The position numbers and the translations under genes are program-made. A stretch of 64,000 bases of DNA from Eledone cirrhosa. Its lineage: Eukaryota. Of the stretch, positions 21,304-22,305 are shown piece by piece; position 1 is the first letter of the stretch, and every line of letters begins with the position of its first letter. The notes below the pieces were generated by a model that saw only the letters and a list, made by a program, of their open reading frames with translations, did not search any database and was not told where the DNA came from. The stretch spans positions 39,804,001-39,868,000 of the forward strand of contig OZ024745.1 of NCBI GenBank assembly GCA_964016885.1, read 5' to 3'.

Positions 21304-21897
21304 CTATCCGTTAGGGAATAACGTGAGGCTGTAGTACAGGAAAGTTTTGTGCAATTTATGTTTACAAGCCGGAATTGACTTAGATTTTTTGTTTAACATG
21401 TGGTTTGAGGTGTAGAGTATTTCCAGGGCCTCAGTGGCCCAGAGGTCACATGGTCTTTTATTTCGGTTATACGATCTAGCCCTAGCTAGGATCTCCCAGT
21501 GTAACTTATATTGGGTGTGGTTGTCTTTTAGACTCCAGATATAAGCTGAAAGTGACGTCATATTCCTTCTTAGAGGGTAACGAAAAGAATGGGTATGCAT
21601 ATAAAGACGCTGCTTGAATCTATTGGCGGTTAACCCTATCTAGGCCCTACGGGACGTGGGTGTTTCAACCCTACATTTGTAGACAATGTTACTAGAGAGG
21701 CATTTCCCGGATAGGGGGAAATCAACCCGATTCCTACAATTACAGTTAGTACTAACTACAGGGTTGCATGTGTTCCTACGGCTAGGTAGTTTAGCTAAAT
21801 TTGAAGCTGTGATGCTATGTGCAAGGTTAGGAGTCGTAGAGTAAGAAATGTTAATAGTATTTCTATTAAAAATGGTTTCCCAGTTTCTAGCCAGCCT
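21304..21897 (-). mobile_element. Penelope-like element, 5'-truncated GIY-YIG endonuclease region (pseudogene)
   Basis: FNRNTINISYSTTPNL..CNCRNRVDFPLSGKCLSSNIVYKCRV..*IGLTANRFKQRLYMHTHSF...TSLSAYIWSLKD...WEIL..CDLWATE..LNKKS...CKH, the typical PLE zinc-finger plus GIY-YIG C-terminus. Probable 3' non-coding sequence runs to about 20310. Confidence 0.9.
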
Positions 21898-22305
21898 CAT
21901 ACTCGTACTGCTAGAAATAACAGCCGTATATATCTAGGCTGGCTAGAAACTGGGAAACCATGTGCGTTAAACAGTCTTTTAAAATATTTGGAAGTGAAGC
22001 ATATCAATTTGTTCTGGGTGTTTACTGATGTGAGCTGGACACGATATCCTTACACTTATTCATCTCGAAACATATTTGGATTTTAAAGTTTAAACTTATC
22101 TACGGAACAGGTTTGATTTTGAAATTTAAATTTGTCTAAACACCATCGCCATTTGCCAATATTGTTTGTTTTTATTGATTTATTATTTTAAATCGAGATA
22201 GGCAAACTGTAATATTATAATTAGTATATTTCATTCTAGCTAACTTAATTTATTTTACAATATAAACACAGATATGTTGGTACTTGTGTTTCATCATATA
22301 TATTA

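Follow-up and report, generated by a model that had tools for sequence, protein, structure and literature searches.

A truncated Penelope arm joined head to head with a two-armed copy of a hammerhead-like repeat in Eledone cirrhosa

Introduction

Endonuclease-bearing (EN+) Penelope-like elements (PLEs) of the Neptune type encode, like the element studied here, a reverse transcriptase (RT) with a C-terminal GIY-YIG domain and a Cys-rich linker (PMC8557442; PMC3846280). The available descriptions of EN+ PLEs also share with the present locus a microsatellite target, 5' truncation, partial tandems, a head-to-head inverted arm and two alternative 3' ends. The inverted arm at this locus belongs to another, non-coding family, whereas the inverted PLE copies described in the accessible portions of these two papers come from the element's own family. 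Arkhipova et al. (2013) proposed self-priming, and the accessible portions of that paper report no cross-mobilisation between PLE types (PMC3846280); Craig et al. (2021) state that the formation of the PLE inverted structures is unresolved (PMC8557442). An active pair of autonomous and non-autonomous PLEs has been described in Chlamydomonas (PMC9977147).

Animal non-LTR retrozymes are tandem units with a hammerhead core on one strand and coexist with PLEs (PMC7229834; 10.64898/2026.07.22.740005), an arrangement that resembles the families called A, B and B2 here, which carry a hammerhead-like core. The A, B and B2 units measure 518-558 bp, compared with about 170-400 nt given for invertebrate retrozyme circles, and, unlike in retrozymes, their core is non-canonical (A9 is mostly T in B) and is unrecognised by Rfam. 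The mobilisation of retrozymes by PLEs is a standing proposal, based on co-occurrence and pLTR relatedness: it was made by Cervera and de la Pena (2020; PMC7229834) and again by Li et al. (2026; bioRxiv 10.64898/2026.07.22.740005), who call the evidence on the life cycle limited. No earlier report of PLE/retrozyme fusions was found in the open-access main texts searched. Cross-family head-to-head fusions, which amount to roughly 5% of about 3000 PLE-family copies, constitute a countable genomic read-out both for this proposal and for the origin of the inverted structures.

A third comparison is provided by L1, for which insertions from two RNAs in both orientations (PMC11702581) and twin priming with switching (PMC11702581; 10.1101/2024.08.27.596794) are documented. 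As at the present locus, the inverted piece in the L1 twin priming described there comes from the same RNA and begins close to the stop of the main arm; short microhomology at the outer joins, untemplated bases at the inner join and inserts in which the 5' ends of two transcripts meet are likewise common to both systems. Unlike in L1, the enzyme is a different one and the target is (TA)n, in which no target-site duplication is readable. Additionally, the copies studied here are germline copies, fixed or polymorphic, whereas the L1 cases in those accounts are induced or tumour events.

Results and Discussion

Anatomy of the locus

The analysed window comprises 64,000 nucleotides of E. cirrhosa contig OZ024745.1 (assembly GCA_964016885.1, positions 39,804,001 to 39,868,000 of the forward strand), and positions refer to this window unless a locus is named. 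It contains a genuine cross-family fusion, in which a truncated Penelope arm is joined head to head with a two-armed repeat copy in the order (TA)n, PLE arm (minus strand), B stub (minus strand), CT, B arm (plus strand) and (TA)n. The left target tract (20181-20298) lies at the natural 3' end of the 5'-truncated, Neptune-like Penelope arm (20299-21873), which holds the GIY-YIG end of the open reading frame (ORF; about 21290-21873, one in-frame stop) plus the 3' UTR. At the PLE/B junction (21872-21874), 2-3 nt are common to both partners, namely AT, or CAT if the source PLE was a GTAACAT variant. The stub (21872-21933) is a 62-nt piece of the 539-bp B repeat, B36-97, with its RNA sense on the minus strand like that of the PLE. 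It is followed by CT (21934-21935), two untemplated nucleotides at the head-to-head join of both B pieces; natural B copies read differently on either side of this dinucleotide. The main B arm (21936 to about 22316) extends on the plus strand from B72 to about B452-463, being 5'-truncated and having its 3' end at the right target tract (22296-22429). Its hammerhead-like core (22025-22070, plus strand) reads CTGATGT, a GAG/CTC stem and GAAA, with T at position 9 where the canonical base is A. The window also holds 2.9 units of the 518-bp sister family A (27270-28765, minus strand, RNA sense minus), with the 3' end at (TA)n at 27270 and a truncated 5' end at 28765; this array is related to B and is not the donor.

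The anatomy is assembly-based. No piece across the PLE/B junction was found at 99% in the contigs of runs X1-X3 or the reads of X14, none spanning it was among the matches listed for runs X1-X4 at 90%, and the best 40 of 1773 candidates included no second copy of the junction.

The Penelope arm and its boundary

The PLE arm is 97-98% identical to its best copies in the own genome, in which one 30-mer of the family has 3009 exact matches. A preliminary description of this DNA had extended the PLE remnant to about 21897, and the other copies place its end earlier. In 28 of the 29 other best-match PLE loci, PLE sequence runs on upstream of 21871, the exception (L051) being joined at that point to its own inverted 3' end; the match of PLE copies to the window ends at 21871-21876, and raw reads depart from the window at 21873/21874 and continue as PLE. 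The end of the Penelope element lies at 21871-21874. The 26-mer that forms the inverted pair at the locus is absent from all 29 other best-match loci, and with the PLE match ending where it does, a PLE origin of the two arms was ruled out. The 38-mer at 21896-21933 is likewise foreign to the PLE, as judged from the PLE copies against which it was checked.

The minus strand left of 21873 codes for the end of the RT/GIY-YIG ORF, and a longer family copy (L250) reads in one frame from the RT through a Cys-rich linker to the C-terminal nuclease. A CNC...C...C motif, forming a Cys-rich, zinc-finger-like linker, precedes the GIY-YIG-like box; from this linker and from sequence motifs, we take the element to be Neptune-like rather than Nematis-like. 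Atlas look-alikes of the PLE protein (0.94-0.97) carry RVT_1, HTH_animal and GIY-YIG, and a Pfam scan of three PLE proteins returned no family at E 0.1. A Cys-rich linker is known from both Neptune and Nematis (PMC8557442). The PLE tandem unit measures about 3.26 kb, as read from tandem copies, and 5' truncation, partial tandems and inverted 5'-truncated copies are all present in the family. Neither a motif scan nor Rfam detected a canonical hammerhead core at the PLE 3' end.

The two B pieces and their template

All of the 62 nt at 21872-21933 are of B origin, matching genomic B copies at 62/62 (L002) and 61/62 (L004) positions. The piece is colinear with the unit of the 518-bp array at 53/62 (E 9e-15), and the array near 28 kb was ruled out as the donor, the 26-nt arm matching it at 20/26 against 62/62 for the stub and L002. 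The segment from 21936 to about 22316 is an 81% copy of family A on the opposite strand (E 1e-100); it is 97.7% identical to its nearest copy, and B subfamily copies elsewhere stand at 94-98%. Since both segments align to the repeat, both 26-bp arms are repeat-family sequence, and the apparent fold-back is the overlap of two opposite B pieces. In 67 of the 71 distinct B arm contexts examined, the 36-nt loop directly continues the arm.

The preliminary description had read this segment as a PLE fused to 38 nt of the 518-bp repeat and then folded back upon itself. The underlying alignments were reproduced: 21896-21933 matches 28229-28266 at 35/38 positions, 21872-21897 and 21936-21961 (the first 26 nt of the main arm) form a perfect 26-bp inverted pair with no outward extension, and the 518-bp array ends at 28765 within the homologous segment. 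The interpretation is altered in that the captured piece is 62 nt long and colinear with the repeat unit, including both the first 26-bp arm and the 38-mer; its donor is a 539-bp B repeat, the same template as that of the adjoining arm; and the 26-bp pair is no fold-back of the PLE. The microhomology previously seen at the join (AGCCAGCCTC versus AGCTAGTCTC) reflects just the homology of B to A, the true PLE/B join being that at 21872-21874.

Two other origins of the inverted pair were considered and rejected. A chance hairpin is contradicted by the fold (z -11.4; 0/200 shuffles), and a simple cDNA fold-back with a flipped loop predicts ...TATATG|AGGC, whereas ...TATAT-CT-AGGC is seen and the loop has the opposite orientation.

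The exact arm variant occurs in 5 of 79 genomic arm matches, two of which are at this locus (elsewhere 3/77). Because this rare variant is common to both, the stub and the main arm are assigned to one B template; later conversion between B arms may be another source of it. The stub includes B36-71, which is missing from the main arm, and must therefore have been copied from a template that extended beyond that arm. The inverted stub (B97-36) begins near the 5' stop of the main arm at B72, which together with the common rare variant is a feature of twin priming. Other B insertions have their 5' ends at the same two stop points (B72 in L148, B36 in L135), and the homologous segment of family A contains a predicted hairpin on the RNA strand (folding z -2.7).

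Proposed formation of the fusion

The reading preferred here, to which roughly even credence is given, is an integration on two templates with a switch from PLE RNA to B RNA. An endonuclease would nick both strands of the (TA)n tract, after which one 3' end would prime on PLE RNA and be extended to 21873, and the other would prime on B RNA and stall at B72, at the base of a hairpin. The PLE cDNA, itself arrested with AT at its end, would prime anew at B97 of this B RNA and be extended as far as B36, and the two cDNA ends would then be joined with the 2 untemplated bases. The boundaries, the B origin of all 62 nt and the rare variant common to both B pieces are observed; RNA templates, simultaneous events and copying by the fused PLE's own enzyme are inferred. 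The orientation of the 62-nt piece is the one expected if the PLE cDNA ran on along the repeat RNA, i.e., the hammerhead-like strand.

A switch by the Penelope RT onto ribozyme RNA had been suggested in the preliminary description. The direct PLE-repeat fusion and its fitting orientation speak for that suggestion; its breakpoint, length and donor were wrong, and a two-armed B copied without any switch also fits. The switch stays a live reading because of the direct fusion, the orientation of the stub and the element-derived inverted stubs that occur elsewhere in the genome.

Insertion signature at (TA)n tracts

PLE, A, B and B2 insertions have one signature: their 3' ends lie at set positions against (TA)n, their 5' ends vary, and both partial tandem copies and second arms in head-to-head orientation occur. 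Two fixed 3' ends are in use, with 49 of 52 TA-primed B ends at 537-539 or 450-463; B97 served as a (TA)n-primed start once (1/52, in L029). For the PLE, 99 of 100 listed places were examined (L040 was omitted, its 5' end lying outside the locus), giving 95 events after merging. In this positionally unbiased sample, the 5' end adjoins an inverted piece of the element itself in 56 events (including L258), a TA run in 20, another flank in 15 and another family in 4; with L258 reassigned, own inverted pieces account for 55/95 and direct fusions to another (TA)n-targeting family for 5/95. Arm pairs within a family differ in 31 of 787 polymorphic comparisons, compared with 281 expected for random pairs. 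Since two-family events are rare and second arms of the same family nearly always match the alleles of the first arm, a single template or source is the default.

The three-piece layout is also seen within single-family insertions (L220, L062, L030), and short inverted stubs at 5' joins come from the element itself (L043, L045, L098, L116, L117, L132). The three-piece insertions, together with the element-derived stubs that abut foreign flanks, show that a cDNA routinely primes anew close to where the opposite arm stopped. These stubs bear on another explanation, in which a single B arm reaching to B36 was already present when the PLE arrived next to it. The end of the PLE cDNA would have taken the neighbouring genomic strand as its template, from B97 up to the nick, and rejoined at B72, producing a DNA-templated inverted duplication of the flank. 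The stub does end in TATATAT, a possible nick site, a B arm in L135 ends at B36 against a TA run, and L1 is able to invert a reciprocal DNA end (PMC11702581). However, at 16 of 17 other PLE 5' joins no flank-derived inversion longer than 7 nt was found, the exception (L262) involving a two-armed element; no remnant of B1-35 lies left of the PLE, and B72 recurs as an RT-type stop in the PLE-free insertion L148. A duplication of the flank is therefore considered very improbable.

Additional palindromic structures share these tracts. Family C is short, two-armed and (TA)n-bounded (22546-22724 and 19245-19330 in the window) and very common beside PLE and B copies; it is fused to the PLE in L033 and L262. 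At L355:1302-1745, several tiny palindromic pairs of PLE 3' ends stand in a row with (TA)n between them.

Joins between families

Across all loci examined, direct cross-family neighbours numbered 0/28 for 3'-3' pairs, 3/11 for 3'-5' pairs and 6/9 for 5'-5' pairs, such that pairs with a 5' end were direct in 9/20 cases versus 0/28 for 3'-3' pairs (P 1e-4). No direct join was thus seen without a 5' end, a pattern that favours an origin during integration over one by subsequent deletion. This count weighs on the view that a long B palindrome (arms of about 400 bp, 36-nt spacer) was inserted first and that a later microhomology-mediated deletion took most of one B arm, the TA tract and the 5' part of the PLE. 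Near-symmetric two-armed B insertions are indeed common (L126, L127, L140, L093), and 2-3 nt are common at the join; such deletions should, however, also fuse 3' ends across families, and many long palindromic insertions are still intact. This sequence of events is judged improbable.

The excess of direct 5'-5' joins is weak and no more than suggestive: the enrichment has P 0.17, or 0.06 with L052 moved, P 0.012 in the unbiased PLE sample with classes sorted by eye, and P about 0.1 with scripted classes (4/20 vs 0/20, hand-computed). The search for other chimeras of the PLE and the repeat families, as the preliminary description had recommended, yielded L258 as the clearest other composite and a second fusion of the same PLE, this time to the sister repeat B2. 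At L258:2523-3260 (G000:C1 about 82,067,200-82,068,000), the B2 arm stands head to head with the PLE via two short PLE-derived stubs, one of which stems from a part of the PLE missing in the PLE arm of L258. In L170:2106-3390 (the same as L010), a B arm is fused directly, with AG in common, to the 3' end of a D-family PLE; because B is joined there to a different PLE, the PLE fused at the present locus is just one candidate source of the enzyme.

The main competitor of the two-template integration is a pair of separate insertions into one (TA)n tract, with a twin-primed B whose short arm starts from B97 and no switch from PLE to B. The PLE could have come before or after B, the TA spacer having shrunk to the common AT, and B would likely still have been copied by a PLE enzyme. 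Several observations fit such a history: the families crowd the same tracts (39 TA-spaced cross-family neighbours), the junction AT is as compatible with a PLE 5' end that met TA as with B having been primed from TA, and 15/95 PLE 5' ends adjoin other flanks without a TA run. A graded series exists between L262, where the PLE is joined to the natural end of a C element with two arms, and L052, which is the same with a 9-nt TA spacer. The use of B97 as a TA-primed start in L029 allows the stub to be a complete second arm. The other same-direction joins, L262 and L217, coincide, or nearly so, with the natural 3' end of the partner, as expected of sequential insertion without a spacer, and direct joins of this class (3/11) are not commoner than spacer-less PLE 5' joins in general, which make up 20/40 non-self joins with L258 reassigned. 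Among the first 57 B2 loci, a PLE fusion occurs only in L258, which was the query source (0/56 independent); beyond the first 30 of these loci, 18 single-orientation ones were examined and those with both orientations were sorted by their listed matches. Divergence private to each arm amounts to 2.6% in the PLE arm against 1.5% in the B arm (P 0.32); in L258 the values are 2.4% versus 0.7% (P 0.017, with biased comparators), and equal age is not demonstrated by either comparison. Separate insertions nevertheless require two uncommon things at once, a B arm from 97 (1/52) and a spacer-less PLE 5' end, and they leave the 5'-5' joins L010, L033, L238, L245, L258 and L259 unexplained unless deletions passed the whole near arm. 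This history is accordingly rated as quite possible, with a probability clearly below even.

Implications for a PLE-retrozyme partnership

Whether by two-template integration or by separate insertions, the B pieces would have arisen by reverse transcription, and they bear the insertion signature of the PLE; of the arguments for a partnership, this one is the more robust. The locus lends support to a PLE-retrozyme partnership without proving it, and one locus alone cannot settle the question. If the fusions are single events, both arms would be separately primed cDNAs and the non-coding ribozyme repeats would be templates of the same machinery. A broader picture is put forward tentatively, falling a little short of even credence: the strands of (TA)n would be primed independently, a few percent of insertions would be two-RNA composites, PLE enzymes would mobilise ribozyme repeats, and the inverted arm would be a second cDNA rather than a fold-back. 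If independent priming of the two strands is true, this locus would record the passage of a PLE cDNA onto a retrozyme-like RNA and would be direct physical evidence of PLE enzymes mobilising ribozyme repeats.

Repeat families and the hammerhead question

The units of A, B and B2 (518, 539 and 558 bp, respectively) form tandem arrays on C18 and C4 in addition to many dispersed copies. The B array of about 90 kb (L004-L024, L166; G000:C18 about 11.55-11.64 Mb) terminates at (TA)n with a short arm in inverted orientation, and an array of family A on C4 near 230.48 Mb exceeds 10 kb. Contigs of a second organism (run X4) contain B-like sequence, about 90-97% to window positions 21881-22300; the B family is therefore not confined to one genome. 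By BLAST, A, B and B2 showed no similarity to the fused PLE or to the D pLTR, and, as nothing in B was found to resemble the 3' end of the PLE to which it is fused, B is probably not the pLTR of that element.

Each of the three families carries CUGAnG(A/U)...GAAA boxes on one strand, and the families covary at C3-G8 (A, B) versus U3-A8 (B2) and at stem II, GAG/CTC versus GCA/TGC. The U3-A8 variant of the hammerhead core is already known (PMC4209133). Position 9 is T in 58 of 78 B cores, and stems I and III are ambiguous. The minimum free energy (MFE) folds of the repeat gave no ribozyme fold, and Rfam, in both gathering and E-value modes, returned no hammerhead for it and only low-complexity miRNA matches. 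On the boxes and their covariation, a hammerhead in the A/B/B2 repeat is plausible.

Other families provide clearer hammerhead motifs. Family F, a 323-bp tandem repeat (L108:2426-3250; L163; L217:4200-4850; L238), has a complete type I hammerhead-like fold with a U3-A8 core, in which all three stems vary between copies yet still pair; L238 and L217 contain direct fusions of F to the PLE and to D, respectively. Judged by its predicted fold, family F appears a better retrozyme candidate than the 518-bp family. Within the window, a head-to-head pair of D-family PLE 3' ends (19340-20180) has a clear minimal hammerhead in each end, CTGAAGA...GAAA with stem I AGTCA/TGACT, both of which Rfam misses. 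A 467-bp array at 56965-64000 comprises 15 copies, 99% identical, each of which bears a canonical CTGATGA...GAAA core on the plus strand; dispersed copies of this retrozyme-like family end at (TA)n and include two-armed insertions (L051, L338). Repeat E (29007-29870) is a (TA)n-bounded partial tandem with a unit of about 620 bp and a hammerhead-like box near 29750.
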